From the NCBI GenBank assembly GCA_027485695.1, contig JAIXQO010000003.1, forward strand, positions 866,932 to 930,931: 64,000 bases of DNA, written 5' to 3'. Source of the stretch: Pseudomonadota bacterium (GTDB lineage Bacteria > Bdellovibrionota > UBA1018). Shown piece after piece: positions 10,339 through 35,017 of this stretch. Positions within the stretch are counted from its first letter, which is position 1, and every line of letters begins with the position of its first letter. The notes under the pieces were generated by a model. That model was not told where the DNA came from and ran no database searches. It was given only the letters and a program-made list of their open reading frames with translations. The translations under genes and the position numbers were made by a program.

Positions 10339-11956
10339 CGCTTGCAGACATGCGAAACACGAGTTTGTATTTCTTCAGTCCGTCGGCGCCGGTCACGTCC
10401 GTCATCGAATCCGTTTTGAATTGAGGGAACCGCGAGACGACGGCGTTTTTCAACCGTTCTCCTACCTGAGGAGACGCGACCCAGAACTCCATCTCAGAAG
10501 GGACTTGGCTGGTTGCAGTCGCCGAGCTTTGGGAGAATTTCATCAGATCAGTCACCACGTCGCGAGAAACGGCGGCGGAGAGATCCTTGAGAAAATCAAA
10601 AGGCGAAGAAGGATCCGGCTCCAGTAGCTTGAGGAGGCTTCGTTCCTTGTTGAGCTCGGAGTCGACGGCGCGTTTCAAACTCGAGGTGTTCGCCATGTAA
10701 TTTTTGAGAGTACCAGGGGCGATACCTGAGAAAAAATTTCGCGTCGCTTTTTCCAAGCCCGTGCTCGAGTCTTTGATCTGCGAATCGATCATCGAGGACT
10801 GGGTGAAAAGAATGATGATCGCGAGCACCATCGCGACTGAAAGCGTCTTCATCGGCTTGGCGACGAGCGATAGGTTGAGGCCGGGGCCTGAAGAGGTTCG
10901 CGCGAATTCTTTTTTGCGAAGGTTCACCAGAACGCTGCGTTCGGGGCTCGTCGCAGCAAGTGCGAGTCCAAGGGCGAGCGGGAAACGCACATCGGTTTGT
11001 TCAGAATAGGTGACCCGGCTCTCACCCAAGGAGCTGAGCGGTCTCAAGATGTGGGTCGAGATTTTCATTTCCTCCGCGAAAGTCGCGGAGAGGCCTGGCA
11101 TCAGTGCAGTGGGTCCAGCCAGGTAAATGGATCCGACACGTTGGGCGGTGACGGTTTTCGAACTCAGGTCCGCTTGCTTGACGTCGCGGATGAGTGGAGC
11201 GAGGCACTCGTAGACCGATGCCGCGAAATCGCGCTGCTCTTCGGAGACTTGCTCCATTTGAGTGATCGGAAGGACGAATCCGCTTTCGATTTTGGCTTTT
11301 TCGGCGGCTTCGATCGTTAGGTTGTAACGTTTCGAGAGTGCAATCGACATCTCGCGCGATCCCCAGGCGATCTCGCGACACAGGACAGGATTGCCCAAGT
11401 GCTGAACATAGATGGTCGTGCGTTCATGTCCAAGATTGACGAGCATGATCGGGCGATCCGTCGCCGTCAGTCCCGAAGAAATTTTTCTGAACAGAGCACG
11501 GTAGGCGGAAGCCTCCGTCGTGAGTACGTCCGGATCGACGCCAGATTCCCCGAGAAGCGCCAAATACTCGGCGACGTTCGTCTTCAAGGTCGCGGCCACG
11601 TGGATGGCCGTTTCATGGCCGACGGCGCCCAGGTTCACCCAGTCGTAAATCAAATCGTCTTCTTCGAATGGGAGGTCGTCCTCGATCTCGAAACGAACAC
11701 TGGATTGGATGGCTCTTTTGTCGCGGGTCGGAAGTTTGAGGTTCCGGAACGTGACCCGGTTGCTCTTGACGTTGGTGATGACACGGTCCGGTTTCTTTTT
11801 GAGCGAGGCAATCAGTTCGGCGGCCGCGACGGCGGGAGCGGTACCCGTCGGAACTTCGAGCTCATAGTACTCTTGTACTTCTGAGCGGCCAAAAGCCGAG
11901 TTCAGTTCAATCGCTTTGATACTGGTACTTCCAATGTCCAGTCCAAGAATTCTCAT
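10307..11956 (-). CDS. gspL: type II secretion system protein L (actin-like cytoplasmic domain + TM + periplasmic domain)
   Basis: N-terminus 'MRILGLDIGSTSIKAIEL' is an actin/ASKHA fold as in GspL/PilM. A mid-protein TM 'LSVAMVLAIIILF' is present. Position is between gspK and gspM. Confidence 0.75.
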   Translation of the reverse strand: MRILGLDIGSTSIKAIELNSAFGRSEVQEYYELEVPTGTAPAVAAAELIASLKKKPDRVITNVKSNRVTFRNLKLPTRDKRAIQSSVRFEIEDDLPFEEDDLIYDWVNLGAVGHETAIHVAATLKTNVAEYLALLGESGVDPDVLTTEASAYRALFRKISSGLTATDRPIMLVNLGHERTTIYVQHLGNPVLCREIAWGSREMSIALSKRYNLTIEAAEKAKIESGFVLPITQMEQVSEEQRDFAASVYECLAPLIRDVKQADLSSKTVTAQRVGSIYLAGPTALMPGLSATFAEEMKISTHILRPLSSLGESRVTYSEQTDVRFPLALGLALAATSPERSVLVNLRKKEFARTSSGPGLNLSLVAKPMKTLSVAMVLAIIILFTQSSMIDSQIKDSSTGLEKATRNFFSGIAPGTLKNYMANTSSLKRAVDSELNKERSLLKLLEPDPSSPFDFLKDLSAAVSRDVVTDLMKFSQSSATATSQVPSEMEFWVASPQVGERLKNAVVSRFPQFKTDSMTDVTGADGLKKYKLVFRMSASGATGGKKDGK

Positions 11957-11997
11957 GCGCGTGCACCCTCTGGCATTCTCGTGGTGTCAAAATCAGT

Positions 11998-12111
11998 ACT
12001 GAGAGATGAGAAATGGGTTCGTGAGTCCGCACCAGCGTGAAGCGTTCGCCTCGAAGAGGCGAGGGGCGGTAGGACAGGAGTCCGACGAACGAAAACATTT
12101 CTCATCTCTCA
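11998..12111 (-). ncRNA. intergenic structured element (copy 1): perfect 17-bp inverted repeat 'CTGAGAGATGAGAAATG' flanking a conserved core, in the gspL-gspK gap
   Basis: 11998-12014 is the exact reverse complement of 12095-12111. The core contains 'AGCGTGAAGCGTTCGCCTCGAAGAGGCGA' with an internal hairpin cgcctc-gaa-gaggcg. Confidence 0.45.
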
Positions 12112-13536
12112 GGATTCTCTCATAAAGGTGATTTTTAGGCCAATATTCGGCGTCGTAGTTGAGTTTGGATTTGCCGCCGCCGGGTCTTGTCCACCCGGAT
12201 TTTGGGGCTGTGCACCACTGCCGTCGGCCCCGTTTCCGCCAGCACCATTGGGGTTTGTCGTGTTGCCTTGGCGTCGGCCGGAATTGCTATCGGGTTTTAC
12301 CAGGGAGACCCAGGCCTCGATCACGCGCATGGCTTTATTGACTTCGGCGCTGACGGTGATCTTGAACGTCTCCTCATCGACGATGAAGTAAATGCCTTGA
12401 GAAGAGAATTTCTGTTTGAGTTCGGTCTCGGAGCGGCCAACGCTTCCAAACGCCTTGGCAATGTAGGTCCAGAATGCTTGAGCGTCCTTGAAGCGGTTAT
12501 CGGCTTCTTCGGAATCACGGAATTTGAAAAACTCCTCGACCTCCTCGTCGGTAACGCCTGGGAAAAGTGCACGTAGAAGAGGGGCTTCGAGCGTATTGAC
12601 GTTGATCCCGGTCGTCGGATTCGTCGTAAACAATGGTGCCAATAGCTGGTAGAGACCGTCATCAATCGGATGGATCATGCGAAGCTCGGAGACCGAGTAA
12701 AAAGGCGCACGTTTGTAAGGGATGACCTGACGACCGCTTCCGTTGCGTGGCTGGAACGAGGGGTCGATCCAACCAAAAATATTATCCATGAGCTCCTCAA
12801 TACTGAGGTCTCGGTACTCCTGGGCGAAATCGGTATCGTCTTTGAACTTCTGATTGATGGTGTTCGTGATGAACGCCGTGAGTTGCTCCCGGGCAGCTTT
12901 GGGGTCAGCCGAATTGGTCGGACTTGGATTCGGATTCGGGCGTCCGCGTGAACCGCCGCCCCCAAATCCACCGCCGCCGTCTTCGTCTTCGCGACCGCCG
13001 GCTCCTGCACTAGCACTCGGCGAAGGGGCTGGAGCTGCATAGGCGGGGAGCGCGGAGTTGATGTTCATGCGATTCGAATCGGACTCGATCGTCGCGGTGA
13101 ACCGACCCTGAAGACCGCTCTCGGTTTCGAACTTGGCAATCTCGTCCTTGGTGATGACGGGGATGCCGGGAACGTCTTTGGGGATCGGATAGGAGAACGG
13201 GAATTTCCAAACCTGTTCCAGCACCGTTGCTGGAATTGACGGCAGATTGGAGCCCTTGCCGCCCATGCCCCTGAGATTTTGATAGGCCTTGAGTCTGAGG
13301 AGGGAAATCTTAAGGCCGGTGAGCGCAAGGTAGTGAGCCTTGACCTGATCGGTGGCATCGAATGCAAGGCGCGCGTTCACTTGCGCGACGTATGTGAATT
13401 CGCTTACGAGCACCGAGAGAATCGTCACCGCCGAAAGCACCATGAATAGTGCGATCCCGGTTTCGTTCTTTTTCGGTTTGGACCGGAGGAGCGGAAAGCC
13501 CGTCCGGGCCCGCTCAATAAGTTTTTTCCAGTCCAT
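12109..13536 (-). CDS. gspK: type II secretion system minor pseudopilin K (with Gly/Pro-rich low-complexity insert)
   Basis: N-terminus 'GIALFMVLSAVTILSVLVSEFTYVAQVNARLA' is GspK-like. The ORF track extends to 13617, which would overlap gspJ by 104 nt, so I chose the internal start 'MDWKK' at 13536. Low-complexity segment 'GGREDEDGGGGFGGGGSRGRPNPNPSPTNS'. Confidence 0.7.
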   Translation of the reverse strand: MDWKKLIERARTGFPLLRSKPKKNETGIALFMVLSAVTILSVLVSEFTYVAQVNARLAFDATDQVKAHYLALTGLKISLLRLKAYQNLRGMGGKGSNLPSIPATVLEQVWKFPFSYPIPKDVPGIPVITKDEIAKFETESGLQGRFTATIESDSNRMNINSALPAYAAPAPSPSASAGAGGREDEDGGGGFGGGGSRGRPNPNPSPTNSADPKAAREQLTAFITNTINQKFKDDTDFAQEYRDLSIEELMDNIFGWIDPSFQPRNGSGRQVIPYKRAPFYSVSELRMIHPIDDGLYQLLAPLFTTNPTTGINVNTLEAPLLRALFPGVTDEEVEEFFKFRDSEEADNRFKDAQAFWTYIAKAFGSVGRSETELKQKFSSQGIYFIVDEETFKITVSAEVNKAMRVIEAWVSLVKPDSNSGRRQGNTTNPNGAGGNGADGSGAQPQNPGGQDPAAANPNSTTTPNIGLKITFMRES

Positions 13537-14377
13537 AAAAAGGCGTTCCCACATGAAGCGTGTATAGGCCGTCGAATCGAAGGCGTTGTCCTCCGATGAC
13601 TTCGATTTTGATTTCAACGAGGTCCGGATATTTTCCGTTCAGGTCGTCGTCGGTTTTTCCGTTATCCCATTTGTTCTGCCAGGATTTTTTATCGCGTCGA
13701 AAGTAGCGGAAAGTCATGGTCTTCACGCCAGGCAAGATATAATAGGCTTTTTTCCAGGTGTCTTTTTTCTCTTCGTCATCGAAGACGTTGGTGTCGACGA
13801 TCTTAACGAGCGTACGCGCGCCTTCTAAGCGGTAGTCTTCGTCTTTTTCTTCGCGAAGTTCATAGGTGACCTTGACGAATTCGCTCTCGGGACGGTCTTT
13901 GTAGAGTCGTTGATGCGAGGAAGTGATGAAACTCATCTTCTGCTCTTCGCCAACGAATCGAGAAAGCCTGACGCCGGTCTTAACGGTCGATGGGAGCCAG
14001 AAATCAGTGAGTTTTCCCAGTTCGGCGGCAGTCTCGAGTTCGTCCTGCGTGGGTGGTTGCGCTCCGGGCTGTTGTCCGAATCCACCCGGTTGACCTGGAA
14101 AACCCGGACGTTGCGGAGTTTTCGGCTTGGGGGGGAGGTAAGCGACCGGCGAAAAAAGCATGTTCAAGTCGCGCTCGACCAGTCCCATCGAGAGCCGAAT
14201 GCCGTTATAGAAATCGCCTTCGCGAATCAGCACGTCGCGCATACGAAACGTCTGGGTCATTGACTGATAGATCGCCAGACTGATGAAGATCAAAATCGTA
14301 ATCGAGATCAAAACTTCGAGAAGGGTGAAACCGGCTGTTCGTTCTCGTAGGCTTTGTTTTTTGCGCGCTGACACCAT
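13514..14377 (-). CDS. gspJ: type II secretion system minor pseudopilin J
   Basis: Prepilin N-terminus 'RERTAG|FTLLEVLISITILIFISLAIY'. I chose the internal start 'MVSARKK' (16-aa leader). The ORF track start at 14476 would give a 49-aa leader and an ATGA overlap with gspI. Confidence 0.7.
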   Translation of the reverse strand: MVSARKKQSLRERTAGFTLLEVLISITILIFISLAIYQSMTQTFRMRDVLIREGDFYNGIRLSMGLVERDLNMLFSPVAYLPPKPKTPQRPGFPGQPGGFGQQPGAQPPTQDELETAAELGKLTDFWLPSTVKTGVRLSRFVGEEQKMSFITSSHQRLYKDRPESEFVKVTYELREEKDEDYRLEGARTLVKIVDTNVFDDEEKKDTWKKAYYILPGVKTMTFRYFRRDKKSWQNKWDNGKTDDDLNGKYPDLVEIKIEVIGGQRLRFDGLYTLHVGTPFYGLEKTY

Positions 14378-14472
14378 GATGAAACTTTTTTCGACTTCCA
14401 AAAAAGCGTGATGCGTTCTCGCCGCAGGCGAGATTTTTGGGAGGATAGGAGTCCGGCAAGAAAAAAGTTTCA

Positions 14473-15018
14473 TCATGGTGTCAGACTAAATGGAGTTTCA
14501 AAATCCACCCAGTACATCGCGACCACGTAAGACTGTTCTCCTGCGCCTCGTTTCCATTTGACGGTGATCGTGATCTCTCGAATCGATTTCGAGAGGTAAT
14601 TGAAAATGACTTTGCCCATTTGCTCTTGCACGTTCGCATTCGACGAGCCGTCAGCGGGAGGTGCTTGATCTTCGGCCTCGGGATTCTGAAAAAGAGCCGA
14701 TATATTCGGGAACTCGATCTCCTTGACCTTACGTTCCCAGGAATAGTCTTGATAGGGGTCTTCGAACTGTCCCGATAGCTCCGTGCGAATCTCGCTGAAC
14801 GGTTTCCCGAGGATCTCGGCCTCAGTCATGGTCATGGCGTTTCGAGCGAGCATTCCGACGACGTTCATCTGTTTGGATTTCGCCGAAGTATTCAGGCTCG
14901 ATCGCTGGACCATGAGGATCGAGGCAAACGCGACAAGCATGATGGCCATGGCGATCATGACTTCAAGAAGCGTGAATCCTGAGCGGTTGTCGCGGAGGCG
15001 ACTCGGGAGGTGCCTCAT
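14473..15018 (-). CDS. gspI: type II secretion system minor pseudopilin I
   Basis: Prepilin motif 'NRSG|FTLLEVMIAMAIMLVAF'. Length 181 aa. 4-nt overlaps on both sides. Confidence 0.8.
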   Translation of the reverse strand: MRHLPSRLRDNRSGFTLLEVMIAMAIMLVAFASILMVQRSSLNTSAKSKQMNVVGMLARNAMTMTEAEILGKPFSEIRTELSGQFEDPYQDYSWERKVKEIEFPNISALFQNPEAEDQAPPADGSSNANVQEQMGKVIFNYLSKSIREITITVKWKRGAGEQSYVVAMYWVDFETPFSLTP

Positions 15019-17422: not shown

Positions 17423-19138
17423 TTAAGCTTCGGCGTGCGTGGCGCGCATCAGTTCTTCGATCGTAGTGATCCCTTGTAAGACCTTGTTGATCGCGTCCTC
17501 ACGCAGTGTTTTCATCCCAGCCTGTACAGCAGCTTTTTTGATGAGACCCGCGTCCGCTTTTTTGACGATCAGCGACCGAATTTGGTCGTCGATCATCATG
17601 AGCTCGTGTGTAACCGTTCGCCCACTATACCCTGAATACGAGCAAGATGCACATCCAACTGCTTTGAAAATCGTCGCATCGGCCGGGATTTTCTGCATGC
17701 CCAGTTCCAGCTTCTCGAACTCGGTCGGCTCGTGTGGTTCTCGGCATTTAGGGCATACACGGCGGATCAGTCGTTGTGCGGCCACACCGAGGAGCGAGGA
17801 TGCCACGAGGAACGGTTCCACACCCATGTCGATGAGACGAGTCGAAACCCCGGGAGCGTCGTTGGTGTGGAGTGTGGAGAGAACCAAGTGACCAGTGAGC
17901 GAAGCTTCGATGGCGATCGTCGCGGTTTCTTTATCCCGGATCTCACCGACCATGATGACGTCGGGGTTCTGACGAAGAAAAGCACGCAAAACGCGGGCAA
18001 AGGTGAGTTCTATCTTGGAATTGACCTGAATTTGGTTGATGCCGTGAATCTGATACTCGACTGGATCTTCGACCGTCATGATGTTGCGTTCGGGCGAATT
18101 GAGTTTCGACAGGCACGCTGCGAGCGTCGAAGATTTACCGGAACCCGTCGGGCCGGTGACGAGGATGATTCCGTGCTTTTTGGAAATCAAACCTTCGATG
18201 AGATCCTTGCTCTGGATGGTGAATCCGAGCTGATCCAATGTCATGATGTTGCCCGTCTGCTGGAGAATACGCATGACGAGTCGTTCGCCGTGCGCGGCAG
18301 GGACGGTCGAGAGACGAATGTCGATGTCCTTGCCGGCGATCTTGATTTTGATGCGTCCGTCTTGAGGCAAGCGCTTCTCAGCGATGTCGAGCTGGCCCAT
18401 GACCTTGATACGCGAAGAGATGGCCGCGTGCGCTCGTTTAGGTTGGCGGATGACGTCGTAGAGCACGCCATCGACGCGGAATCGTACGACGAATTCTTTC
18501 TCGAACGGCTCGATGTGAATATCGCTCGCGTTTTCTTTGACGGCGCGGAACAAGAGCGAGTTCACGAATTTGATGACGGGCGCGTCGTCTTCGGTGGCTT
18601 CCAAGATATCGATTGGACCCTCTAGGTCCATCGCTTCTTCGAATTCCCCTTGAATTTCGGAAACGACGTTTCCGGAGTTGCGTTCATAAACGCGGTTGAT
18701 CGCGTCCTGGATCCTCATCGAAGTCGAGACGCAGATCTTGATCGGCATGCGCGTGAGCACTTGCAAATCGTCGATGATCGATTCGTTGAATGGGTCGGTT
18801 ACGCAGACAACGAGGATCTCACCATGCGTGGATTCCTCAGTCGAAAGCGGGATGACTTCTTTGGCTTTGGCGTAGTTGATCGGGATGTGCGTGACGAGTT
18901 TCGGATCGATATCGTTCGGCTTCAAGTCCTCGATGAACGGAATGCCGAGCTGAATGCAGAGCGCGCGCATGATTTCGTGCGGAAGAATCATGTTCCGACG
19001 GATCAGGATATCGCCGAGGAGTCCGCCTTCGGTCTCTTGAAGTCGCAGAGCCTCATCGAGCTGTTCTTCGGAGAGCGAAGTGTGCTTGAGAAGGATCTGT
19101 CCGAGCTTAGGTGCGGGCAGGCTGTGCGCTAAAGACAT
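17423..19138 (-). CDS. gspE: type II secretion system ATPase E
   Basis: Walker A 'VTGPTGSGKSST'. Tetracysteine zinc motif 'CPKCREP...CASC'. GspE/PilB family length (571 aa). Confidence 0.95.
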   Translation of the reverse strand: MSLAHSLPAPKLGQILLKHTSLSEEQLDEALRLQETEGGLLGDILIRRNMILPHEIMRALCIQLGIPFIEDLKPNDIDPKLVTHIPINYAKAKEVIPLSTEESTHGEILVVCVTDPFNESIIDDLQVLTRMPIKICVSTSMRIQDAINRVYERNSGNVVSEIQGEFEEAMDLEGPIDILEATEDDAPVIKFVNSLLFRAVKENASDIHIEPFEKEFVVRFRVDGVLYDVIRQPKRAHAAISSRIKVMGQLDIAEKRLPQDGRIKIKIAGKDIDIRLSTVPAAHGERLVMRILQQTGNIMTLDQLGFTIQSKDLIEGLISKKHGIILVTGPTGSGKSSTLAACLSKLNSPERNIMTVEDPVEYQIHGINQIQVNSKIELTFARVLRAFLRQNPDVIMVGEIRDKETATIAIEASLTGHLVLSTLHTNDAPGVSTRLIDMGVEPFLVASSLLGVAAQRLIRRVCPKCREPHEPTEFEKLELGMQKIPADATIFKAVGCASCSYSGYSGRTVTHELMMIDDQIRSLIVKKADAGLIKKAAVQAGMKTLREDAINKVLQGITTIEELMRATHAEA

Positions 19139-19183
19139 GGCTTAAGTTCTCGTCTCCGATTTCCTCTTACCCATTGCGTGGGG

Positions 19184-19355
19184 CTGAGAAAATGTTTTTG
19201 TTCGTCTGTACAAGCGTGACGCGTTCGACTCGAAGAGGCGATGTACAGGATTTTGAGCGCACGATGCGCGAGAAACCTGACTCTCCAGTGGAGAGTTCGT
19301 AAGCAGTATGCCTGCGAAAAGGCAGGACGTCCGGCAGGCAAAAACATTTTCTCAG
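19184..19355 (-). ncRNA. intergenic structured element (copy 2): perfect 17-bp inverted repeat 'CTGAGAAAATGTTTTTG' flanking a homologous core, in the gspE-gspD gap
   Basis: 19184-19200 is the exact reverse complement of 19339-19355. The core 'AGCGTGACGCGTTCGACTCGAAGAGGCGA' matches copy 1 at 27 of 29 positions. Extra hairpins: ctctcc-agt-ggagag and cctgc-gaaaa-ggcagg. Confidence 0.45.
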
Positions 19356-22030
19356 CCTCCGAAATCCGCTGCTGGAGGAGGCATGGGAGCTTGATCCATC
19401 GGGTATCCACCGTAGTTCGGGTCTCCGTAGTATTCCGTGCCGGGAGGAGGAAGTCCTTCTGGCATCACCGGAACTTGTCCGGGTTGAACGGGAGGAAGGC
19501 CGTTCGCCGGAGCAGCAGTTCCCATGTTACCGTCGGTCGCGCGTGTTCCCTGCTGCTGTGCTGGCGCGGAGGGTGCGCTCAGACCACCCGCCGAGGCTTG
19601 TTCGGCACGGTTGTCGATGGAGAAGTTCGTTTGCGGACGATTGTTCTTGAGAGCGTTTAAGTCCGGCAGACTGCGGATGATATCGTCGCGTTTTGCACGA
19701 TTCGTATCGTTTCCACCGACGGACGTCTCGATGAAATCGTCACGCTCTTTGAGCTTCTGATCCAGAACTGTTCGGATCTTCTCATATTGGCGAATGATCT
19801 TCGGCGTGATGAAGAGCAGGAGGTTGATCTTGTCCGATTCATCCTTGGTGGCGCGGAACAACCATCCAAGCACTGGGATATCACCCAAGAGCGGGATCTT
19901 AGAAACGGTTTTGGTTTGTTTATCGCGCGTAAGGCCGCCCATGACGACCGTATCTCCATCGGCGACGGTGATCGTAGTTTTCGCCTGGCGCGAGGTCGTA
20001 GCTAGACCGCCTTGACCGAGTGCCCCGGGAAGTTCGCGACCCGAGAAGTCTTGAAGCTTGGCTTCGATTTCGAGTCTCACGAAATTCGACATCTTATTGA
20101 TCGAAGGTTTGAGTTTGATTGAGATGCCGACGTCTTCTTTGGCGCCTGGAGTGGCTTGCTGAATACCGTTTGTGAGTGTCGTTTGAATGGTCGGGATTTT
20201 TTCGACCGAGTCAAACAATGCCTCGGTATTATCGAGGGTCAGGATTTGCGGTGTAGCGAGAACCGTTGCGTTCGAATTGGTCTGCATCGCATTGATCAGG
20301 CCCTCGACCGAGCGTACTTCGACGTTTTGTCCGCCGACATTAAAGGTCTTGGTACCGCCGGCTTTGAAACCGAGAATAGCGCCTGTGGACGAAAGGGGAT
20401 TCGCGACAAATTTCGCTAGATCTCCGTTCACGACCGATCCTAGACCGTTTTTCGGGCTCATGACGTTGACTGACATATCGAATTTCTTACTGAGCGACAT
20501 CTCCATGATGACGACTTCGGCGTAAACCTGGTCGCGTGGGATATCGAGGCGGTTGACGACCCGCTGAACAGTCGCGAAATCGTTCGGCGTGGCGGTGACC
20601 ACGAGCGAGTTCGTCGACTTATCAGCCGCGACCTTGATGGAGCCTTCGAAGAGCGAGGCTTGCACGGGGTTTGATCCCGTTCCACCTGCCGCACCACCGG
20701 CGCCACCTGGACGAGCAGCCGAACCGGCGGAAGAGCCGAGACCGTTCAGAGTGTTGGAGAGAGCTTCGGCGTCTGCGAACTGCAAGTAAATGACGTGAAC
20801 CTTGCCGCCGCCGATTTGTGCGGGGAGGGTTTTGTCGAGTTTCTTGACGAGGTCGCGGACCTGATCGGCACCGCGGCTGTTCGCGTGAACGATCAAGTTA
20901 TTGGTGCGTTCGTCGGCGATCACCGTATTGATGATGCCGCCTTCTTTGGTCTTGCGAGCCGTGAATCGCGATCCACCTGAACCAGGGAAACGCGGGCCCG
21001 CAGAAGGTCCAGCCGCATTGCCCGGAATGAGTGTATCCACCAGTTTCGCGAGTTCGGCGGCCGAAGCGAATTTAACCGGGATGACTTCGATGCCGGCGTC
21101 GTAGCCCTCGACGTCCAAGATGTCGAGGAGCTTGGAGAGCTTGGCGATGTTTGAACCAGTGTCGGTCACGATGACCGTGTTGGTTTGTTCATAAGGAATG
21201 ATCCGCGAGTTCGCTGGCATGAAACTTCGGAAGTTACGAGCGACTTCGTCGGCGGACAAGTACTTGAGGCGGAATAGGCGAGTGATCAGGGCATCGGAGT
21301 CCGGAGATTTTGCGCCCGTGAACGTGCGGAGCTGTTTATCTCGCGCATCGCGTTGGCGAGCGATCCGGATGAATTTGCCCGAAGGAATGAGGGCAAAGTT
21401 CGTCATATCCAGGGCCGTCAAGAATGCTCTCCAGGCTTCGCGAACCGTGATCGGTGAATTCGAAATAATAGAGATCTTGCCTTTGACGTCCTTATCGAGA
21501 ATGAAATTCTTGCCCGTCAATTTGCCGAGTGCTTTTGCGATATCGAGAATATCGGCATCGGGAAAATTGAAATCGGTGATGAGTTCGTTGGAACCGGAGC
21601 CACCTTCGTCATCGACCATGGCATAGGGTTGAGCGGCGCTTCGAGGGCCCTCGTTCACGATGCCTTTTTGGCTGCCGCCGATTTGAATTCCACCACCACC
21701 GCCACGATTCGAAGCGGTGTCGTAGGAAACGCCGCCTCCGCCCCCGGCACTACCGCCGCCATCTCGAGGCGGAAGTTGGGAGTTGCCGTAGTCCATCTCA
21801 AAATCTTCGTCATCTTCGTCGAAAAAAGGCTGGCCTGGCTGAGACGGCGGGGCAGCGTATGGATTATTAAAAGATTTTCCGCCTGGTTGAAATCCCGCCG
21901 GCGGGTCAATCGCATGTGCAGGGCTCGAGAGGAGAACAATGATCGCGGTGAGGGAGACGAAGAGAATCGCGCCCCCCAGGCATCGGATGCATTTCAAGTT
22001 TTGTTCAGTCGGTTCCATACGCGTCTCCAA
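19352..22030 (-). CDS. gspD: type II secretion system secretin D (long Gly-rich low-complexity N-terminal region)
   Basis: Secretin C-domain 'VVMGGLTRDKQTKTVSKIPLLGDIPVLGWLFRATKDESDKINLLLFITPKIIR'. Signal peptide present. N0-N3 region interrupted by Gly-runs 'GGGSAGGGGGVS...NRGGGGGIQIGG'. Confidence 0.9.
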   Translation of the reverse strand: METRMEPTEQNLKCIRCLGGAILFVSLTAIIVLLSSPAHAIDPPAGFQPGGKSFNNPYAAPPSQPGQPFFDEDDEDFEMDYGNSQLPPRDGGGSAGGGGGVSYDTASNRGGGGGIQIGGSQKGIVNEGPRSAAQPYAMVDDEGGSGSNELITDFNFPDADILDIAKALGKLTGKNFILDKDVKGKISIISNSPITVREAWRAFLTALDMTNFALIPSGKFIRIARQRDARDKQLRTFTGAKSPDSDALITRLFRLKYLSADEVARNFRSFMPANSRIIPYEQTNTVIVTDTGSNIAKLSKLLDILDVEGYDAGIEVIPVKFASAAELAKLVDTLIPGNAAGPSAGPRFPGSGGSRFTARKTKEGGIINTVIADERTNNLIVHANSRGADQVRDLVKKLDKTLPAQIGGGKVHVIYLQFADAEALSNTLNGLGSSAGSAARPGGAGGAAGGTGSNPVQASLFEGSIKVAADKSTNSLVVTATPNDFATVQRVVNRLDIPRDQVYAEVVIMEMSLSKKFDMSVNVMSPKNGLGSVVNGDLAKFVANPLSSTGAILGFKAGGTKTFNVGGQNVEVRSVEGLINAMQTNSNATVLATPQILTLDNTEALFDSVEKIPTIQTTLTNGIQQATPGAKEDVGISIKLKPSINKMSNFVRLEIEAKLQDFSGRELPGALGQGGLATTSRQAKTTITVADGDTVVMGGLTRDKQTKTVSKIPLLGDIPVLGWLFRATKDESDKINLLLFITPKIIRQYEKIRTVLDQKLKERDDFIETSVGGNDTNRAKRDDIIRSLPDLNALKNNRPQTNFSIDNRAEQASAGGLSAPSAPAQQQGTRATDGNMGTAAPANGLPPVQPGQVPVMPEGLPPPGTEYYGDPNYGGYPMDQAPMPPPAADFGG

Positions 22031-23289: not shown

Positions 23290-23390
23290 TGGATTGTCGG
23301 CTCTGCAATTGGCTGGAGGGCTTTGACAATTTGTCAGGGTATGCAAATCACAAACCCCCTGTTTCGACAAATTGTCCAAACAGGGGGTCG
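23290..23390. promoter_or_regulatory. T2SS operon upstream region with three GACAA/TTGTC palindromic sites
   Basis: 'tgacaatttgtca' (23324-23336) and 'gacaaattgtc' (23366-23376) are perfect palindromes. A third half-site 'attgtc' lies at 23293. The region is 60-140 nt upstream of the gspC start. Confidence 0.35.
23341..23387 (-). terminator. hairpin terminator downstream of the repeat-protein gene
   Basis: 10-bp perfect stem ccccctgttt/aaacaggggg (23355-23387) enclosing the palindrome above. On the minus strand it is followed by TTTGTGATTTG. It sits 30 nt past the stop of the 23414-24571 gene. Confidence 0.5.
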
Positions 23391-25576: not shown

Positions 25577-26779
25577 ATGAGTTTATTTAAAATCACGCTG
25601 ATCGCCGTGGTGGCGCAAGTCTTGATCTCGAGCGCGAACGGGTATGCGCTGCCAGATTCTGGATTCGTGCCCATTGGACGCGGGTTTAAGAATGGGCACG
25701 AGACGCTGCACCTGGTGTCGGTCGGACGGCGCGACATCGATGGATACCGTGGTTTCGATCGAGTACAATTCTACTATCAGAACTCCTCGACCGGCGAAAA
25801 AGCACTGATGGGTCCTTCGGTTTATTTGTTTGGCGATTTATTGCAGTCATCGGACGCAAAAAAAGTCGAAGATCAGCTCCAGAGTTTCTATGACGCCAAT
25901 GGCCTAAAACGCGGTCGTGGCGGCGCCAACTACCTTGCGGTTACTTCGATGGTCTATCGTGACTTTTTTCGCGGTGAACTAGACGCGGAGGATGTCCTAG
26001 GCCTCGGCCTCATCTTGTACGTCACGGGCATGGTGATGAAGAACGCCACTGCCGAGCATTTTGATGTGAAACTCGACAACCTGGGTTTCGCTTTTATTGC
26101 CGCCGCTCCGCTCGCAGTGGATCTGGTGTTCGCGCCTTTTCGGTGGATCGTTTCACAACTGTCGTCTCGTGAGCGTTTCAATTACATGAAGTCCGGGGAG
26201 TTCAAACCGCTCCGCGAGGTGGCGCTTGAGAACTGGGGATTAAGAGCCCATCGTTTGCGCTCCAGAGTGTTCAGTACGCTCAAATCTGAGCTCATCAACG
26301 CGGGTACTGACTCACTTTTTGATGAGATTCCACGCGGTAGTTTCGATTGTGGCGTTGAACGGATCCGTTTCGTGACCAGTGAGCGACTCGCTCGTGAGGT
26401 CGCGCGCGAAAACCGCCGGGGCTCAAGAGGTACGGACAATCCGTGGCACCGCTATCCTTATGCGTGGGAATCGCGCGGATTTGCTCGCGAGGAACTGCTG
26501 AGCAATACGAGTCTCGAGCTGAAACATCAGGGCGCCTGGAGGATCGACGGAAATTTCGATTTCGAGCAGACTGCAGGCGAAAAAAACGCCGAGAAGGTTT
26601 GCCTGTCGGTCGCGCTAGATCATCCGAGCCGGGCGCAGCCGTTGATCACAAAACTCTGTGCAAAGGCGGAATCGTCGTACGAGAACGCGTACCCGATCTA
26701 TCAAACCATGCAGTCTCTCGCTCAGCAGTGGTCAGCCCGGATCCCGGGCGGCCTGTCTTGCGTTGAAAATCAGCGGTAA
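25577..26779 (+). CDS. secreted hypothetical protein (400 aa)
   Basis: Signal peptide 'MSLFKITLIAVVAQVLISSANGYA'. No recognisable catalytic motif. Confidence 0.6.
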   Translation: MSLFKITLIAVVAQVLISSANGYALPDSGFVPIGRGFKNGHETLHLVSVGRRDIDGYRGFDRVQFYYQNSSTGEKALMGPSVYLFGDLLQSSDAKKVEDQLQSFYDANGLKRGRGGANYLAVTSMVYRDFFRGELDAEDVLGLGLILYVTGMVMKNATAEHFDVKLDNLGFAFIAAAPLAVDLVFAPFRWIVSQLSSRERFNYMKSGEFKPLREVALENWGLRAHRLRSRVFSTLKSELINAGTDSLFDEIPRGSFDCGVERIRFVTSERLAREVARENRRGSRGTDNPWHRYPYAWESRGFAREELLSNTSLELKHQGAWRIDGNFDFEQTAGEKNAEKVCLSVALDHPSRAQPLITKLCAKAESSYENAYPIYQTMQSLAQQWSARIPGGLSCVENQR

Positions 26780-27889: not shown

Positions 27890-28372
27890 ATGTTTAAAGT
27901 CGGCGACAGCGCGGTCTATCCAGCACACGGAGTAGCAATCGTTAAGCGAATTGATGAACGTGAAGTGGGTGGGCGAGTGAAGCAGTTCTATGTCCTCCAA
28001 GTGATCGAAACCCAAATGACCATCATGGTTCCCGTCGACAACGCTGATTCTGTAGGCTTGCGCGAGATCATCTCCGATAAAGAGGTGTCGAATGTTTATA
28101 AGATCCTGAAAAAGCGCGACGTCAAGATCGACCAAACCACCTGGAACCGTCGTTACCGCGAGTACTCGGAAAAAATCAAGACCGGTTCCGTGTACGAAAT
28201 CGCCGAAGTGCTCCGCAATCTTTTTCTTCTTCGGTCTTCCAAAGACCTTTCGTTTGGCGAGCGCAAGATGCTCGATCAAGCGAAAGCTCTCCTCGTCAAA
28301 GAAATCTCCCTCGCTCGCCAAGCTCAAGAAGACGCGATCGAAGAGGAAATTCAGACGATATTTGCTTCGTAA
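27890..28372 (+). CDS. cdnL: CarD/CdnL-family RNA-polymerase-binding transcription factor
   Basis: 'MFKVGDSAVYPAHGVAIVKRIDEREVGGRVKQFYVLQV' is the RNAP-interacting tudor-like domain of CarD_CdnL_TRCF. Length 160 aa. RBS 'ggagg' lies 9 nt upstream. Confidence 0.85.
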   Translation: MFKVGDSAVYPAHGVAIVKRIDEREVGGRVKQFYVLQVIETQMTIMVPVDNADSVGLREIISDKEVSNVYKILKKRDVKIDQTTWNRRYREYSEKIKTGSVYEIAEVLRNLFLLRSSKDLSFGERKMLDQAKALLVKEISLARQAQEDAIEEEIQTIFAS

Positions 28373-28651
28373 AAAAATCGATTCGCTTGCCGGACTCCTG
28401 TCCTCCTGAAAATCCCGCCGGTGGCGGGAACGCCTCACGCTTTTTCAGAAGTCGCGAAGTCGATTTTTTTACTCAGAGTAGATAAGTGGGCGACAGATTC
28501 ACAGGCGCTCTCCGCACTCCGGAGGAGCGCCTTTTTTTCTACTCGTCACGCAACGTCATCGGTTTCCCCTCGACATTGGGCGGTGTTTTCGTTTGAAATG
28601 CCTGTTCAACGCAATTCACTGATCTTGGTTCCCACCATGCTTGAGGGTTTC

Positions 28652-30715
28652 ATGAAATCATCCATTTTAGGACTGCTACTGATGTTGACCGCTACCGGTT
28701 CGAGCTGTGCTCACGATCAATTCCAATTTTTAGAAGAAGTCCAAGGCGCACGCGCCCTCTCTTGGGTGGATGGGCAGAACGCGCGTTCACAGGGAGTTTT
28801 GAAAAACGATCTACGCTACGCGCGCTTGGAGAATGATCTCCGCGCCATTTATCTTTCTCCGGCTCGCTTGCCGAAACCTTGGTTCGTCGGCGAGCAGCTC
28901 TATAATTTCTGGCAGGACGCGAACCATGTACGTGGGATCATCCGCCGCACGTCGATGGAGAGTTTTAAAACCGCGAATCCAACTTGGGAACTTGTGCTCG
29001 ATCTCGATGCGCTCGCGGCTTCGGAACGCGAGAACTGGGTTTATCAGAGCATGAACTGTTATGAGACGGAGCGTTGCCTGCTGTCGCTTTCGCGCGGGGG
29101 AGGGGATGCGGCCGTCATTCGTGAATTCGACCTCACCACAAAAACTTTTGTCGCGGGCGGATTTGAAATGCCCGAGAGCAAAGGCTCCGTCGACTGGATC
29201 GATCGTGATCACGTCCTGGTTTCTCCCGACCTGGGCGAAGCATCGATGACGACGTCTGGTTATCCAAGACAAGTGCGCGTCTGGACGCGGGGAGCGCGTT
29301 TTCAAGATGCGCCTCTCGTCTATGAGTCCCAAAAAGACGATGTTTATGCGGCAGGTGCCACGTATTTCCGCTCGGCCGGCAATGTGTCGGTGATTTCACG
29401 AGGCAAGACATTCTACAGTGGCGAAACGCTCATCCTGCGAAACAATACGACGCTCGAGAAAGTTCCGGTCCAAGACGACGCCATTTTTCAAGGCGTGTTC
29501 GATGGCTATGCGCTTGTATCGCTTCGCTCGCGTTGGATCACGCACGGCAAGAAATTCCAAGCTGGATCCTTGCTTGCGATTCCGCTGAACAACTTGCATG
29601 CGAAACCGGAGCTCGTCTACGAACCAAACGCGCGCTCGTCTTTGAGTCAAGTCGCGTCGACGAACGATCGTCTCTACATATTTGCGTTTGAAAACGTCCA
29701 GGGCAAACTGCTCTCGTACCGCAAGAAACAAAATCGCTGGGTGAGTGAGGCTCTCTCGCTTCCGGGTGCAGGCTCGATTGAATCGGTGAGTAATCAAGGT
29801 CGTGGGACGAAGCTCGTCGCATACTACGAGGACTTCCTGACCCCGGCGTCGCTTCTCCTGGTCGATACAGCAGCCTCGACACGTGTGGAGTCCATCAAGG
29901 CTTCGGTGCACTGGTTCGATTCCTCTCGTTATGAAGTGACCCAGAATGAATCGACGAGCGCGGACGGCACGCGCATTCCGTATTTCATGATCTCCCGCAA
30001 GGGCCTGATCTTGGATGGTAAGAACCCGACCCTTCTCTACGGTTACGGCGGATTCGAGGTCTCGATGACGGCGACGTACTCGGGAGGCTTGGGCAAAGCA
30101 TGGCTCGATCAAGGAGGCGTTTACGTGCTCGCGAATATTCGCGGAGGCGGGGAGTTCGGCCCGAGATGGCACGAGTCTGCGATCCTGAAAAATCGTCAGA
30201 AGGCTTATGACGATTTCATTTCGGTCGCCGAAGATCTGATCCAACGTCAAGTCACGACTCCTCGTCGCTTGGGCATCAAGGGCGGAAGTAACGGCGGACT
30301 CTTGGTCGGTGCGGTCATGGTGCAACGGCCGGAGCTTTTCAATGCGGTGGTTTGCGAAGTTCCTTTGCTCGACATGTTCCGCTACCACTTACTGCCGGCC
30401 GGCGCGAGCTGGATGGCCGAGTACGGAAATCCCGAAGACCCGGAAATGGCGGCAGTCATTGGCCGCTACAGCCCGTATCAAAACGTGCGTGCTGGCGTGA
30501 ACTATCCGAAGCCGTTTTTCATGACCTCGACCGCGGATGACCGCGTTCATCCAGGCCACGCTCGTAAAATGGCGGCTAAAATGGAGTCGTTTGGCGAAGA
30601 TTTTCTTTTCTTCGAAAACCGCGAAGGCGGCCACGGTGGAGCGGCGAACCTCGAGCAGAAGGTGAAAAAAGATTCGCTCAGCTTCACCTATCTCTATCAA
30701 AGACTCGTCGACTAA
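28652..30715 (+). CDS. prolyl oligopeptidase (S9A) family serine peptidase with signal peptide
   Basis: Catalytic-Ser motif 'GGSNGGLLVGAV'. C-terminal His region 'REGGHGG'. Signal 'MKSSILGLLLMLTATGSSCA' gives the chosen start at 28652. The ORF track begins at 28421. Confidence 0.85.
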   Translation: MKSSILGLLLMLTATGSSCAHDQFQFLEEVQGARALSWVDGQNARSQGVLKNDLRYARLENDLRAIYLSPARLPKPWFVGEQLYNFWQDANHVRGIIRRTSMESFKTANPTWELVLDLDALAASERENWVYQSMNCYETERCLLSLSRGGGDAAVIREFDLTTKTFVAGGFEMPESKGSVDWIDRDHVLVSPDLGEASMTTSGYPRQVRVWTRGARFQDAPLVYESQKDDVYAAGATYFRSAGNVSVISRGKTFYSGETLILRNNTTLEKVPVQDDAIFQGVFDGYALVSLRSRWITHGKKFQAGSLLAIPLNNLHAKPELVYEPNARSSLSQVASTNDRLYIFAFENVQGKLLSYRKKQNRWVSEALSLPGAGSIESVSNQGRGTKLVAYYEDFLTPASLLLVDTAASTRVESIKASVHWFDSSRYEVTQNESTSADGTRIPYFMISRKGLILDGKNPTLLYGYGGFEVSMTATYSGGLGKAWLDQGGVYVLANIRGGGEFGPRWHESAILKNRQKAYDDFISVAEDLIQRQVTTPRRLGIKGGSNGGLLVGAVMVQRPELFNAVVCEVPLLDMFRYHLLPAGASWMAEYGNPEDPEMAAVIGRYSPYQNVRAGVNYPKPFFMTSTADDRVHPGHARKMAAKMESFGEDFLFFENREGGHGGAANLEQKVKKDSLSFTYLYQRLVD

Positions 30716-30729
30716 CGATTTTTGAATTC

Positions 30730-30772
30730 AAAAAAAATGAAACGGGCGGCTCGGGAATTTCCCGTCCGCCCG
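30730..30772 (-). terminator. rho-independent terminator for the 30782-34252 gene (also placed to terminate the convergent peptidase gene)
   Basis: GC-rich hairpin acgggcgg...ccgcccg (30743-30772). On the minus strand it is followed by an 8-nt T-run, the complement of a30-a37. Confidence 0.6.
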
Positions 30773-30781
30773 ATCAAATGC

Positions 30782-33700
30782 CTATTTTTTCTGCACCCGA
30801 TAGAGTTTGTTTCCTGCCAGGATCACCAATGAGCCATCCGGCTGTTCCACGATTGAGCGGATGGCGTCCTTCTTCAGCAAGCTTTTCAGATTGAGCGTAA
30901 ATTCTGGAATCACCTTTTCAGAGGGCAAGCGTTCAAACGTCGAATCAGCTCGGTAAAAGCGAATGATCTGGTCGTCTCCCGCCAGCGCCACTTGGCCGTT
31001 TTTAAGCGCAACCAAGGAACTCTCGATCCACTTGACTCCGGGGATCTCGACTGCTTTTGAAATTCCACGATTGGCTGAACCGAAAAACAGTTTTCCGCTC
31101 TCGCTGAAAACAGCGATGGAATCCGTTGGAAACAGGATGCGAGCTGATTTCCCTAAAAAGCTCTCATTCCCCCGAGGTTCAGCCGTTCGGATAAAACGAC
31201 CTTCGAGATCGCTGAATGCAAGTCCAGGTTTTCCTGGGAACACCACGGTTGATCGTCCGATTTGTGTCGGCAGTGAGCCCTCGAGAGAATATCCAGGTAT
31301 TGATGTCACCGATTCTCCTTGGACATCTGTTTCGGGCTGTTTACGAATCTGCGCAATAACGGCCTCATTTCTTGGATAGTTTGTCCCTGAGACCAGTGCT
31401 AGATCGGATTTAGTAAACACAAATTTCGATTTGGCGTATCGAGCGGTACCCGGATTGATCGCATTGGAGAGTCTCGGAGGATTGCCCTCATAGATAAGAA
31501 TAGCGCCGGCCTTATTAGTCGCCAGTACCTCGCTGTCGTTAGGAAATACTGTGAGCGTCTCTCGCACAATATCGCCGTTGAAATTAATCTCAGGTGCTAA
31601 AAATTTGAACGAAGTCGTGTTGGTTTTTACTCCAAAAAATAATGGCGGATTTCGCTTAAAGTTAAAGGTGTTTTTGATTCTTCTGATATCAGACGGCTTT
31701 TTCGGGTCAATGGAGACCAACTCAGAGCCGTTTGCGATGACGAAAGTTCCATCTTGAAGAGCCAGTGTTGAGAAAGTGGTGCTGAGGCTTCTCGAAGACT
31801 CTAGCGCTAAAACGGTCATTTTTTGGCCTTCTGGTGAATAGAGAACCCAGTTACTGTCACTGTCTTTCACAATAAAGTAGCCCTCGTCATTGATGATGAG
31901 TTCGGCCCGTTGATCAAGTTCGGTAGCAGTAGATACGATGGTCGGAGTTTCAAAACGAAGAGGAGAAATCACGGGCTTAGGGCGATCAATGACCGGAGCC
32001 ACCGTCCGAGCTTTGAAACTGACTGTGTTTTTGGAAGGTGTGCCGAAAGGGGAGCTTTTTTTGTCGGTTGCGGCACTTCGGTAATTCAATTCAATTTGAG
32101 TGAGGCCGAGTCCTGGGTCTGTATTGCCTTGAGTTGGTTTCTTCGGTGTGAATTCCAGTTTAAAATCTGCAATTTGAAAATTACGAGAGTTTTTCGAAAG
32201 GATCTTCGAGAGTTCCTCTAAGAGTTCAGGTGACATTCGAATCGACGTCAAGAGATCGTATTCATCCTCAAAGGATAGTCCAGGTTCTACGCGAATCAAA
32301 AAACCTGAAGCAGTGCCCTTAAAAAAGCGTACTCGCAGCTGATCACTCGGCAGGCTGCCCGGAACCACGCGGATGTTTTGGAAGATAGCAGCTAACTGTG
32401 ATTTCAAGCTGGTTTCGATGAGGGCGGCAGGGGGTTTATTCAGTGTTCTTTGTTTATAGTCCAAACGATAGTCCCGTACGTCACTGGGGTCGCCCTTGGA
32501 AGTTTCGATCGTAAATCGAGGCTTGCGAGTCGTGGGGGATTTCGGAGCTTTGGGTTGTATAACGCCGCCGAGATATTTGGCTAAATCTTGGGTTCTGGGA
32601 GCATTGTTGAACAGAGATACGACGTTCGCATCCACCCCTCGGAGATCTGCGTCTGTGACCAATCGTCCAGCCGCAGGAGCAGTGAAATAGATGTTGAGAT
32701 CTTTTCCATAGAGTGGGCCAGCTGCACTGCAGACCAAGCGTTTTCCCAGTGTTGACCCTCTTCTTGGGTTACTGAATGGTTTGAGTACGTCTGATTCGCG
32801 GTAACTATTCAGCGTCCCAAATGCGCGTCCGCGCAAATCCTTGGGTGTGAGATTACTTAGGAGCTCAGGATTGCCATCTTGAAATCCTGTGGCCACAATC
32901 ACGCGGTCGAACTCTTGAACCGAATCATCATTAAATTTAACCTGAAGTTTCCCGCTAGGAAGGCGAGTGACTGAAATGGCTTTTTTCGTGACCGGTTTTA
33001 AGACCTCGGATTTTACTCCACCGATGATCGGTCCCGAGTATCGAGAGCGAAGGGAATTGAGTAGCTCTTCGCAGGTGGTTTTGGATTGACCGGACCAGGT
33101 GATCGACCGAGGACGACCGGTTTGAGCGGTCGATTGACCGTAACTATCTTCGGGGCCGAACCCGAGGAAATCTTCTATGACTGTATTGCCAGAGTCTCCC
33201 GCACCAATAACGAGGATATCTTGATTCGCGTACTCTTCGAATGCCTTGCCATTGGTGTTTTTGTAGCGAAAGTATCCGGTCGCGCTGTCGAACACCGATG
33301 CTTGGCTCGGATCACGTAGCGCACGTTTCCGCTCTTCGCGATAAAATGATCGAGTTGCTTCATCAAACGCGCTTAAATCGAGTTCTCTCCCGAGGCCACT
33401 GGAGACAACCAGATGATCTGTATAGAAGTACCCGGCACTGGTGGTGATTCGAAAATCAGTTGGCCAGCCGACGGTATCTTCTGGAGGGAGCAGAGCCCGG
33501 TGCTCAACGGTATAAGCTTCTGTATTGAAAACAATTGAAGACTCCCGAAGGATTCCTCGGTTGATCGTCGAAACATCGGCGAGATCCTGAGCGTCTGGAT
33601 ACCCTGCAGCTGAAAAATCAGTAATTTGGACCGGAAGTCCGGCCAGGGCATTTTGATTGCCCACTCCACGTTGCGAGATCTGATTAATCGTTCCAGGGCG

Positions 33701-34252: not shown

Positions 34253-34355
34253 ATAACGCTATCGGAAAATGGAAACGCCACCTTAAAACAAGATCTGGAG
34301 TCTGCCGCGCTCAGGCCCCGAGCGTTCCGGTTTTGACGGAGCGCTCGGGATGTTC

Positions 34356-34811: not shown

Positions 34812-35017
34812 AACGCAGTTACTCCTTTGGACGAATGGAATGGGTCTTCGGAATGACTGATGGCGTTATTTTTGTACGATCGTTCAATTTTAGTGTCAAC
34901 TCATTTGTTTTAGGTCCTGTCTGTAGTATCGAGCCTGGTCGACCGTGATGTCTCATGAGGATTGCCCATGCTTCAGGGTTAAAATTCACGTCGAATTGAG
35001 TTAGTCTCTGAGCACCT

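Follow-up and report, generated by a model that had tools for sequence, protein, structure and literature searches.

Why do several gene junctions of one type II secretion system (T2SS) operon hold structured elements whose flanking arms differ from copy to copy, yet pair perfectly within each copy? The operon lies in a 64,000-nucleotide stretch of contig JAIXQO010000003.1 (positions 866,932 to 930,931; assembly GCA_027485695.1) from a bacterium of the Bdellovibrionota lineage UBA1018; this whole stretch is referred to here as the window. A first-pass annotation of the letters had described two such elements, in the gspL-gspK and gspE-gspD gaps, and had read their differing yet paired arms as compensatory covariation in a selected RNA or DNA secondary structure. 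Our analysis leads to another answer, in which we place moderate confidence: the elements are probably low-copy, small, non-autonomous mobile palindromic DNA elements of Bdellovibrionota, with arms derived from template switching.

Insertion at compact gene junctions

Copy 1 occupies the gspL-gspK gap, which measures 152 nt (11957-12108) as originally reported. The sequence of its perfect 17-bp inverted repeat was given correctly, but the repeat lies one nucleotide further along, at 11999-12112, and its right arm reaches the gspK stop codon as described (TGA, minus strand, 12111-12109, inside 12096-12112). Copy 2, in the gspE-gspD gap, indeed shares the string AGCGTGA-N-GCGTTCG-N-CTCGAAGAGGCGA, which has two matches in the 64 kb and none in 100 shuffles. 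The window holds four copies in total: blastn-short revealed two additional ones, at 14368-14484 and 28369-28472, and a covariance model confirmed them. The covariance model, named R1 and built on 12 cores, finds exactly four copies in the window, three strong and one (copy 2) degenerate. Ranked by length and quality, the element arms fall within the top three inverted repeats of the window. A candidate fifth copy at 25855-25973 was rejected as a chance inverted repeat within a coding region. The four elements are as follows.

11999-12112: copy 1, whole element, in the gspL-gspK gap
19182-19357: copy 2, whole element, in the gspE-gspD gap
14368-14484: copy 3, whole element of 117 nt with 25-nt perfect arms, at the gspI/gspJ junction
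28369..28472, minus strand: copy 4, whole element; R1 match at 28385-28454 (minus strand), 70.3 bits

The T2SS loci of relatives were collected through GspE homologues of 84-87% identity, which gave the loci L037, L038 and L039 and the P0008 locus, the last represented by gene coordinates only. The names of the organisms from which the GspE homologues come suggest a Bdellovibrionota/Oligoflexia-like lineage for the window. The junctions that carry elements in the window compare as follows.

gspD-gspE junction: overlap to 14-nt gap in relatives; 213-nt gap in the window
gspI-gspJ junction: overlap in relatives (19-nt gap in L038); element of ~117 nt in the window
gspK-gspL junction: 3-9-nt gap in relatives; 152-nt gap in the window

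Because all four relatives are compact and element-free at these junctions, the comparison identifies the three gsp copies as lineage-specific insertions and not as a conserved feature of the operon. A search of the relatives' loci with R1, covering 93 kb, detected no copy. In the window, the insertion points lie 9-14 nt past the stop codon of the upstream gene and follow an A-rich tract (GAGAAATG|, GAGAAAATGT|, GATGAAAC|, AAAAAATCGA|) that may reflect a target preference. Three copies entered T2SS junctions that had formerly been stop/start-coupled, and one landed after carD.

The same comparison bears on the possibility that selection maintains the element as a cis-acting RNA within the polycistronic gsp transcript, where it would act as an RNase III or other processing site, a stability hairpin, or a device for stop-start approximation. 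The stems begin at the upstream stop codon, and open frames across the elements (described below) hint at a link with translation. The operon nevertheless occurs without the element in four relatives, and a test for an operon-specific regulatory RNA was negative, the position being unconserved and the orthologous gsp operons element-free. An internal attenuator, one of the functions first suggested, found no support either, since a terminator scan of the gene strand was negative at each of the four copies. Together with the evidence on the arms and the core given below, these results lead us to consider a cis-acting RNA rather unlikely. A secondary exaptation of the elements as RNA is possible.

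Copy 4 lies between the carD stop codon (CarD was identified by Pfam) and a terminator-like stem with a T-run, and its core is on the minus strand. It stands exactly at the carD-side edge of a lineage-specific segment. In L038 and the P0008 locus, gltX-cysS directly follows carD; in the window, ~6.6 kb separate carD from gltX (35018), and this carD-gltX segment (28369-34900) encodes an S9 prolyl oligopeptidase, a 1156-aa open reading frame (ORF) and a 151-aa ORF.

Origin of the arms

The sequences of the junctions, read on the gene strand, reveal where the arms come from. At the K/L site, the window reads GAATCC TGA GAG ATGAGAA| and then enters the element; the corresponding sequence is GAATCC TAG AAG ATGAGAATC in L037 and GAATCA TAA CTGT ATGAGAATA in L039. 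At the D/E site, the window reads GGC TGA GAAA ATGT| before the element, while in the relatives the stop and the start are separated by 0-12 nt. At the I/J site, it reads CTG ACA CCA TGA TGAAAC|, the conserved ...LTP* end of GspI with which the relatives' GspI also ends, and the ATGA stop/start overlap resembles that of L039. Deleting the copy 3 element together with its downstream arm yields an in-frame GspJ (ATG ATG AAA C|CG CGC AAA ... GGT TTC ACC). The arms and their landmarks at the three gsp sites are listed below.

12096..12112, minus strand: upstream arm X of copy 1, native sequence, gene strand C-TGA-GAG-ATG-AGA-AATG
12105-12103, minus strand: putative ancestral gspL start ATG in arm X, from comparison with the L037 and L039 junctions
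11999..12015, minus strand: downstream arm X' of copy 1, a perfect reverse-complement copy of X with no counterpart in relatives
11957..11998, minus strand: spacer Z1 of copy 1, 42 nt, between X' and the present gspL ATG (11956-11954)
19339..19357, minus strand: upstream arm of copy 2, gene strand GGC TGA GAAA ATG T + TTTTG
19354-19352, minus strand: gspD stop codon in the upstream arm of copy 2
19347-19345, minus strand: putative ancestral gspE ATG in the upstream arm of copy 2, from the relatives' short gspD-gspE spacing
19182..19200, minus strand: downstream arm of copy 2, perfect 19-nt reverse complement
14460..14484, minus strand: upstream arm of copy 3, gene strand CTG ACA CCA TGA TGAAAC + T-run
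14368..14392, minus strand: downstream arm of copy 3, perfect 25-nt reverse complement

The left arm of copy 1, CTGAGAGATGAGAAATG, spans 11999-12015 and has its exact reverse complement at 12096-12112. The arms of copy 2, GGCTGAGAAAATGTTTTTG, lie at 19182-19200 and 19339-19357; they are perfectly self-complementary, as had been stated, but are 19 nt long and not 17. The upstream arm of copy 3 contains the last three codons of gspI and its stop (14475-14473), which overlaps the presumed ancestral gspJ ATG (14476-14474), and the downstream arm brings a new in-frame ATG (ATG GTG TCA G...). Set against the relatives, the gene-proximal arm at the three gsp sites is the native junction, holding the upstream stop codon and the old start codon of the downstream gene, and the other arm is its perfect reverse complement, which has no counterpart in the relatives. 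Copy 4 is in line with this rule: its arms of 13 nt are GTAAAAAAATCGA at 28369-28381 and the complement at 28460-28472, the upstream arm includes the carD stop codon (TAA, 28370-28372), and the terminator-like stem and T-run come after the element. Since each downstream arm copies the native flank, the arm differences between copies 1 and 2 represent local inverted duplication, and their interpretation as compensatory covariation under RNA selection falls away at the gsp sites. Comparison of the four copies in the window with ten from other loci shows arms of 7 to 39 nt that are unrelated in sequence. They are perfect in L009 (39 nt) and decayed in L027, and the L036a copy (76 nt) has only its own 7-bp stem and no further arm.

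These arms also bear on the classical miniature inverted-repeat transposable element (MITE), a deletion derivative of an insertion sequence (IS) that ends in conserved inverted repeats, the recognition sites of a transposase, and that duplicates a fixed length of target on insertion. The elements have the outward look of one, being small, multi-copy (four in 64 kb), non-coding, insertion-polymorphic and flanked by inverted repeats. Against this, the arms are unrelated between copies, and the direct repeats at the three gsp sites are ATGAGAA (7 nt), ATGT (4 nt) and none. Local alignments against shuffles give no support to a long direct duplication of the target (p = 0.31, 0.05, 0.42 and 0.76 for copies 1-4). 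Neither a parent IS nor a transposase turned up among the ~38 window ORFs scanned, and plasmid and phage collections contain nothing that matches the minimal element. A classical MITE is thus improbable. The first-pass annotation had also argued against a recently transposed MITE: the unshared arms and the lack of a regular target-site duplication do speak against a plain MITE, but the argument against recent transposition finds no support, given four relatives with empty sites.

The order of events could also be reversed, with the core inserted into the loops of palindromes that were already present. Precedents exist, as IS1397 and ISKpn1 insert into repetitive extragenic palindromic (REP) sequences. 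The core is always central in an inverted repeat, and in the metagenome-assembled genome (MAG) MAG-397 the repeat extends well past the perfect arms. The junctions of the relatives, however, measure 0-14 nt and are not palindromic, and the downstream arm has no counterpart there, which makes pre-existing palindromes exceedingly unlikely.

The conserved core and its distribution

Copies of the family were retrieved from public genomes and metagenomes with the motif AGCGTGANGCGTTC-N(14-44)-AGGAGTCC and aligned with the window copies. The common core of ~70 nt consists of a short closing stem, the stem P2, a 12-nt bulge (AGCGTGA-N-GCGT), the stem P3 and the P4 hairpin GGAC-AGGA-GTCC; P3 is closed in every case by T-A and C-G pairs. 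In copy 1, the 80-nt core and its own hairpin, cgcctc-gaa-gaggcg at 12047-12061, are as first described. The core features at the gsp sites are as follows.

12016..12095, plus strand: core of copy 1; R1 match at 12021-12090, 78 bits, E=3e-14
GTTCGT/ACGAAC: inner stem of copy 1
12026-12033 pairing with 12063-12070: P2 of copy 1
12034-12045: invariant bulge of copy 1, AGCGTGAAGCGT
12046-12052 pairing with 12056-12062: P3 of copy 1
12072-12083: P4 of copy 1, GGAC-AGGA-GTCC
19201..19338, plus strand: degenerate core of copy 2; R1 match at 19200-19258, 36.5 bits
14393..14459, plus strand: core of copy 3; R1 match at 14392-14461, 69.8 bits

The fold of the core is real, because both covariation and pairing exceed the shuffled and slid controls. 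Among 17 copies drawn from several Bdellovibrionota genomes, 20 of the 24 core pairs are changed on both sides, compared with 11.8 after shuffling and 4-12 in slid controls, and 87% of core cells form a standard pair, compared with 66% and 29-46%, respectively. The proposal of a conserved secondary structure therefore holds for the core and fails for the arms, which are copies of the local flank. The core pairing comprises 331 Watson-Crick, 12 G-U and 7 A-C combinations, with no convincing strand asymmetry, and such near-pure Watson-Crick pairing is more in keeping with palindromy at the DNA level than with a typical structured RNA. Copies 1 and 2, a sister pair, agree at 27 of 29 positions in the bulge and P3, yet their P2 stems differ by three fully compensated pairs; the differences between copies 3 and 4 are compensated doublets. 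The 12-nt bulge is identical in every copy fetched with the search motif, across several genomes, and so implies a partner that recognises its sequence, most plausibly a protein whose substrate is the folded single strand.

The covariation of the core and the invariant bulge speak for a cis-acting RNA. This reading is opposed by arms that are copies of the flank, by the very few G-U pairs, by the occurrence of the family in unrelated settings (tRNA genes, convergent gaps and tandem arrays), and by the lack of any Rfam match, even at E<=10. At the gathering score, the window and nine loci contain no Rfam family besides tRNAs; at E<=10, the whole element and the bare cores return only generic hairpin noise of the miRNA and snoRNA kind. 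The window itself has no tRNA and no tmRNA.

A different RNA reading sees in the AGCGTGA strand a gene for a small RNA, transcribed antisense to the gsp genes. This strand folds slightly more stably in four of four copies, and in copies 3 (14417-14443) and 4 (28400-28430) P3 is followed by the T-rich 3' strand of P2 in a terminator-like arrangement. Copies 1 and 2 and the other genomes lack this terminator-like feature, no promoter-like site adjoins any copy on the AGCGTGA strand, and the G-U excess is weak (12 versus 7 A-C). The promoter and terminator scan gave nothing consistent at the elements, its sole call being the internal P3 with its T-run on the opposite strand of copy 3. On this evidence, a small RNA gene is very unlikely.

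In the public scans, true members of the family were confined to MAGs of Bdellovibrionota and a single metagenome that contains large, Bdellovibrio-like contigs, at one to four strict-motif matches per genome or metagenome; the remaining pattern matches were set aside as chance occurrences inside GC-rich genes. The search motif is absent from viral contigs. Outside the gsp operon, the family is found downstream of tRNA genes, between convergent genes and as tandem arrays; its neighbours include tRNA-Thr, tRNA-Ser and carD, and it is also found between unrelated ORFs. It is apparently an undescribed low-copy repeat family of Bdellovibrionota.

Several arrangements of the core were seen along the way. 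In the Bdellovibrionia MAG B_bin_15, a divergent subfamily (L014:3970-4104 and L010:1-66) has the same P2/P3/P4 architecture with another 12-nt bulge (AACCGGAGGTGT) and another P4; its L014 copy is nested in an imperfect inverted repeat of >70 nt, the outer part of which holds a AAGCGTGATGCGTTCGCC motif. Tandem cores occur in L022:1619-1860 (about three, separated by direct repeats of one arm) and in L036:756-972 (two, ~35 nt apart). In L027, an inverted core fragment adjoins a full copy. The elements cluster and rearrange locally. The degenerate core of copy 2 retains P2, the bulge and P3 intact and has lost the P4 loop. It also carries an internal insert of ~75-89 nt (about 19251-19339) made of several short perfect hairpins (GCGCA-CGA-TGCGC, ACTCTCCA-G-TGGAGAGT, CCTGC-GAAAAG-GCAGG and GGACGTCC). 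This insert has no second copy in any sequence searched and looks like further local reverse-complement duplications.

Orientation and open frames

Each of the four copies in the window is flanked by co-directional genes, to which its AGCGTGA strand is antisense, and the L022 and L014 copies, between co-directional unannotated ORFs, have the same orientation. GC skew is positive in every 4-kb bin of the window (1-64000), so that neither an origin nor a terminus falls within it, and copies 1-3 lie on the strand opposite to copy 4. With a constant sign of skew and copies on both strands, orientation tracks transcription and not replication. Throughout the window, the plus strand is probably the leading one, in which case the 13-kb minus-strand T2SS operon is transcribed head-on to replication.

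At three of three gsp sites, the frame that begins at the retained old start codon is open across the element on the gene strand, with the following outcomes.

11953..12105, minus strand: bridging ORF of copy 1, 50 codons, from the putative ancestral gspL ATG to a TGA overlapping the present gspL ATG (ATGA)
19129..19347, minus strand: bridging ORF of copy 2, 72 codons, from the putative ancestral gspE ATG to a TAG 10 nt past the present gspE ATG (19138-19136)
Copy 3, minus strand: in-frame insertion of 39 codons (117 nt) in the cleavable prepilin leader of GspJ

The N_methyl motif of GspJ lies at aa 47-70 of the ORF 13514-14476. Shuffled sequences keep the frame open in 21% (copy 1), 5% (copy 2) and 16% (copy 3) of cases; the joint probability, including the in-frame length requirement for copy 3, is roughly 6e-4 as a post hoc estimate. 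In the reversed orientation, copies 1-3 present stops in all three frames. The orientation and the open frames would thus reflect survivorship, in that only insertions which kept translation running into the downstream gene persisted. A constant orientation relative to transcription would also suit a cis-acting RNA. If ribosomes cross the bridging frames, however, they would melt the structure, and a stable RNA fold on the sense strand is therefore unlikely to be the functional form.

A model for palindrome formation

Replication template switching makes a perfect stem in a single step by adding the reverse complement of neighbouring sequence, and it yields compensatory changes of several bases (PMC8794818). 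We propose that the element proper is the core of ~70-80 nt, which would fold as single-stranded DNA or as a cruciform. The second arm most likely arose when DNA synthesis switched template within the molecule ('snap-back'), with the hairpin of the element itself as primer. The same process could keep the stems perfect and give rise to multi-base compensated changes without RNA selection, and it is a possible source of the compensated P2 pairs of copies 1 and 2 and of the doublets that distinguish copies 3 and 4. In the surviving operon copies, the frame of the old start codon would relay translation into the downstream gene, at gspL and gspE through a bridging ORF and at gspJ through an in-frame extension of the cleavable prepilin leader. 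Taken as a general mode, we put this forward only tentatively: a hairpin without inverted repeats of its own may build a unique, perfect and growing palindrome by fold-back copying of its flank, either while it inserts or afterwards, and copies that reach the first codons of translationally coupled genes may persist as relay ORFs or leader extensions.

Several observations weigh against a mobile element with template-switched arms. First, the ~38 window ORFs scanned include no transposase, recombinase, HUH nickase or reverse transcriptase domain; a mobilising partner could be encoded elsewhere in the genome. Second, the identity of the bulge is a strong sequence constraint and could reflect an RNA- or protein-binding function. 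Third, simple snap-back does not explain what lies downstream of copies 1 and 2: the spacers of 42 and 43 nt that separate each downstream arm from the present start codon, and the repeated ATGAGAA and ATGT. The spacers have no second copy in any sequence searched, and their resemblance to the upstream target lacks significance (p = 0.31 for copy 1 and 0.05 for copy 2). Fourth, the variable arms of the MAG-397 copies (L003, L004 and L008) sit inside a larger conserved inverted repeat that adjoins a conserved module of ~170-200 nt, and for this reason the derivation of an arm from the target flank is demonstrated for the gsp sites of the window only. Fifth, the nearest relatives are ~15% diverged, so the ancestral junctions are reconstructed and not directly observed. 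At L009, where 39-nt arms stand beside tRNA-Thr, the neighbouring gene has a single homologue (P0122, L042), which lacks synteny and offers no empty-site comparison. An inverted partial copy of tRNA-Ser in L003 was considered as proof of flank duplication and rejected, as L004 and L008 share the tRNA-like module within a larger conserved unit.

Differing paired arms, usually strong evidence of a selected RNA, are here inverted duplicates of local DNA, which is a warning for motif discovery in intergenic regions. The family is apparently uncatalogued in Bdellovibrionota and has a strongly constrained 12-nt motif, the binder of which should reveal how the element moves. Three insertions in the coupled junctions of one T2SS operon, each spanned by an open frame, provide a testable case of how an operon can tolerate selfish DNA and still preserve its translational coupling. 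If palindromes built from the target prove general, they would constitute a distinct mode of repeat element and a recurrent source of stem covariation that mimics selected RNA.

Other sequence features

The module adjoining the MAG-397 copies, named module B, was located in this Bdellovibrionales genome at L003:4452-4640, L004:~957-1122 and L008:~326-420. It begins with TGGCGGAG, which resembles an inverted tRNA 3' end, continues with nested hairpins and is closed by AGGGATTCGA/TCGAATCCCT. The fold stability of its two strands is -99.6 versus -76.4 kcal/mol, and it has no Rfam or ARAGORN match. It is possibly an unannotated structured RNA or part of a larger composite repeat. Upstream of gspC in the window, 23322-23388 holds a 17-nt near-perfect palindrome with a 1-nt loop (ACCCCCTGTTTCGACAA/TTGTCCAAACAGGGGGT), overlapped by a second inverted repeat (TTTGACAATTTGTC/GACAAATTGTCCAA). 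This palindrome bears no relation to the element family and may serve the T2SS operon as an operator or regulatory site.

Comparison with known systems

Among the functions and classes first suggested for the element, a repetitive extragenic palindrome family comes closest to what is there, and the likeness can be made precise by comparison with described repeats. REP, BIME and REPIN sequences are conserved units of ~20-40 nt, present in tens to hundreds of copies and linked to RAYT proteins. Both they and the elements described here are palindromes that lie outside genes, at gene ends or within operons, and fold into hairpins as mRNA and as single-stranded DNA; the present elements differ in their branched core of ~70 nt, low copy number and variable arms. 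A test for a REP/RAYT system found no Y1/HUH domain in the ~38 window ORFs scanned.

The Rickettsia palindromic elements are reportedly selfish palindromes of ~100-150 bp that reside inside or at the start of coding regions and are translatable. In a similar manner, copy 3 lengthens the GspJ leader by 39 codons in frame, and an open frame runs through each of copies 1 and 2. The likeness is functional only (translatable insertion) and goes by description, the hosts belonging to different phyla, Rickettsia in one case and Bdellovibrionota in the other. The Rickettsia elements are conserved over their full length, whereas here conservation is confined to the core in the middle and the arms reproduce the local flank.

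The Correia elements of Neisseria and the ERIC sequences have conserved terminal inverted repeats, and Correia elements carry a TA target duplication. They share with the present family the form of inverted-repeat elements of ~100-150 bp; Correia and ERIC elements are co-transcribed with their neighbours and can alter mRNA processing. The present elements differ in having no conserved terminal inverted repeats and no TA duplication. They likewise fail the definition of a classical MITE, because they have neither shared terminal repeats nor a regular target duplication.

Integron attC sites and the ends of IS200/IS605 elements are recombination substrates that fold as single-stranded DNA, with structure conserved above sequence. 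A single-stranded folded form of this kind would explain the covariation of the core and its near-exclusive Watson-Crick pairing. The pattern of conservation is the reverse of that in attC, which conserves its outer ends and varies in the middle. Unlike IS200/IS605 and PATE elements, the family has no orientation tied to the lagging strand, its orientation following transcription. Neither an integrase nor a TnpA (Y1) was found in the ~38 window ORFs scanned.

The arms, finally, resemble the products of template-switch or quasi-palindrome mutation, in which a reverse-complement copy of adjacent sequence with perfect stems arises in one event (Mönttinen & Löytynoja 2022, PMC8794818). Template switching is a mutational mechanism, and what sets the present elements apart is that it was apparently nucleated repeatedly by a mobile hairpin core.

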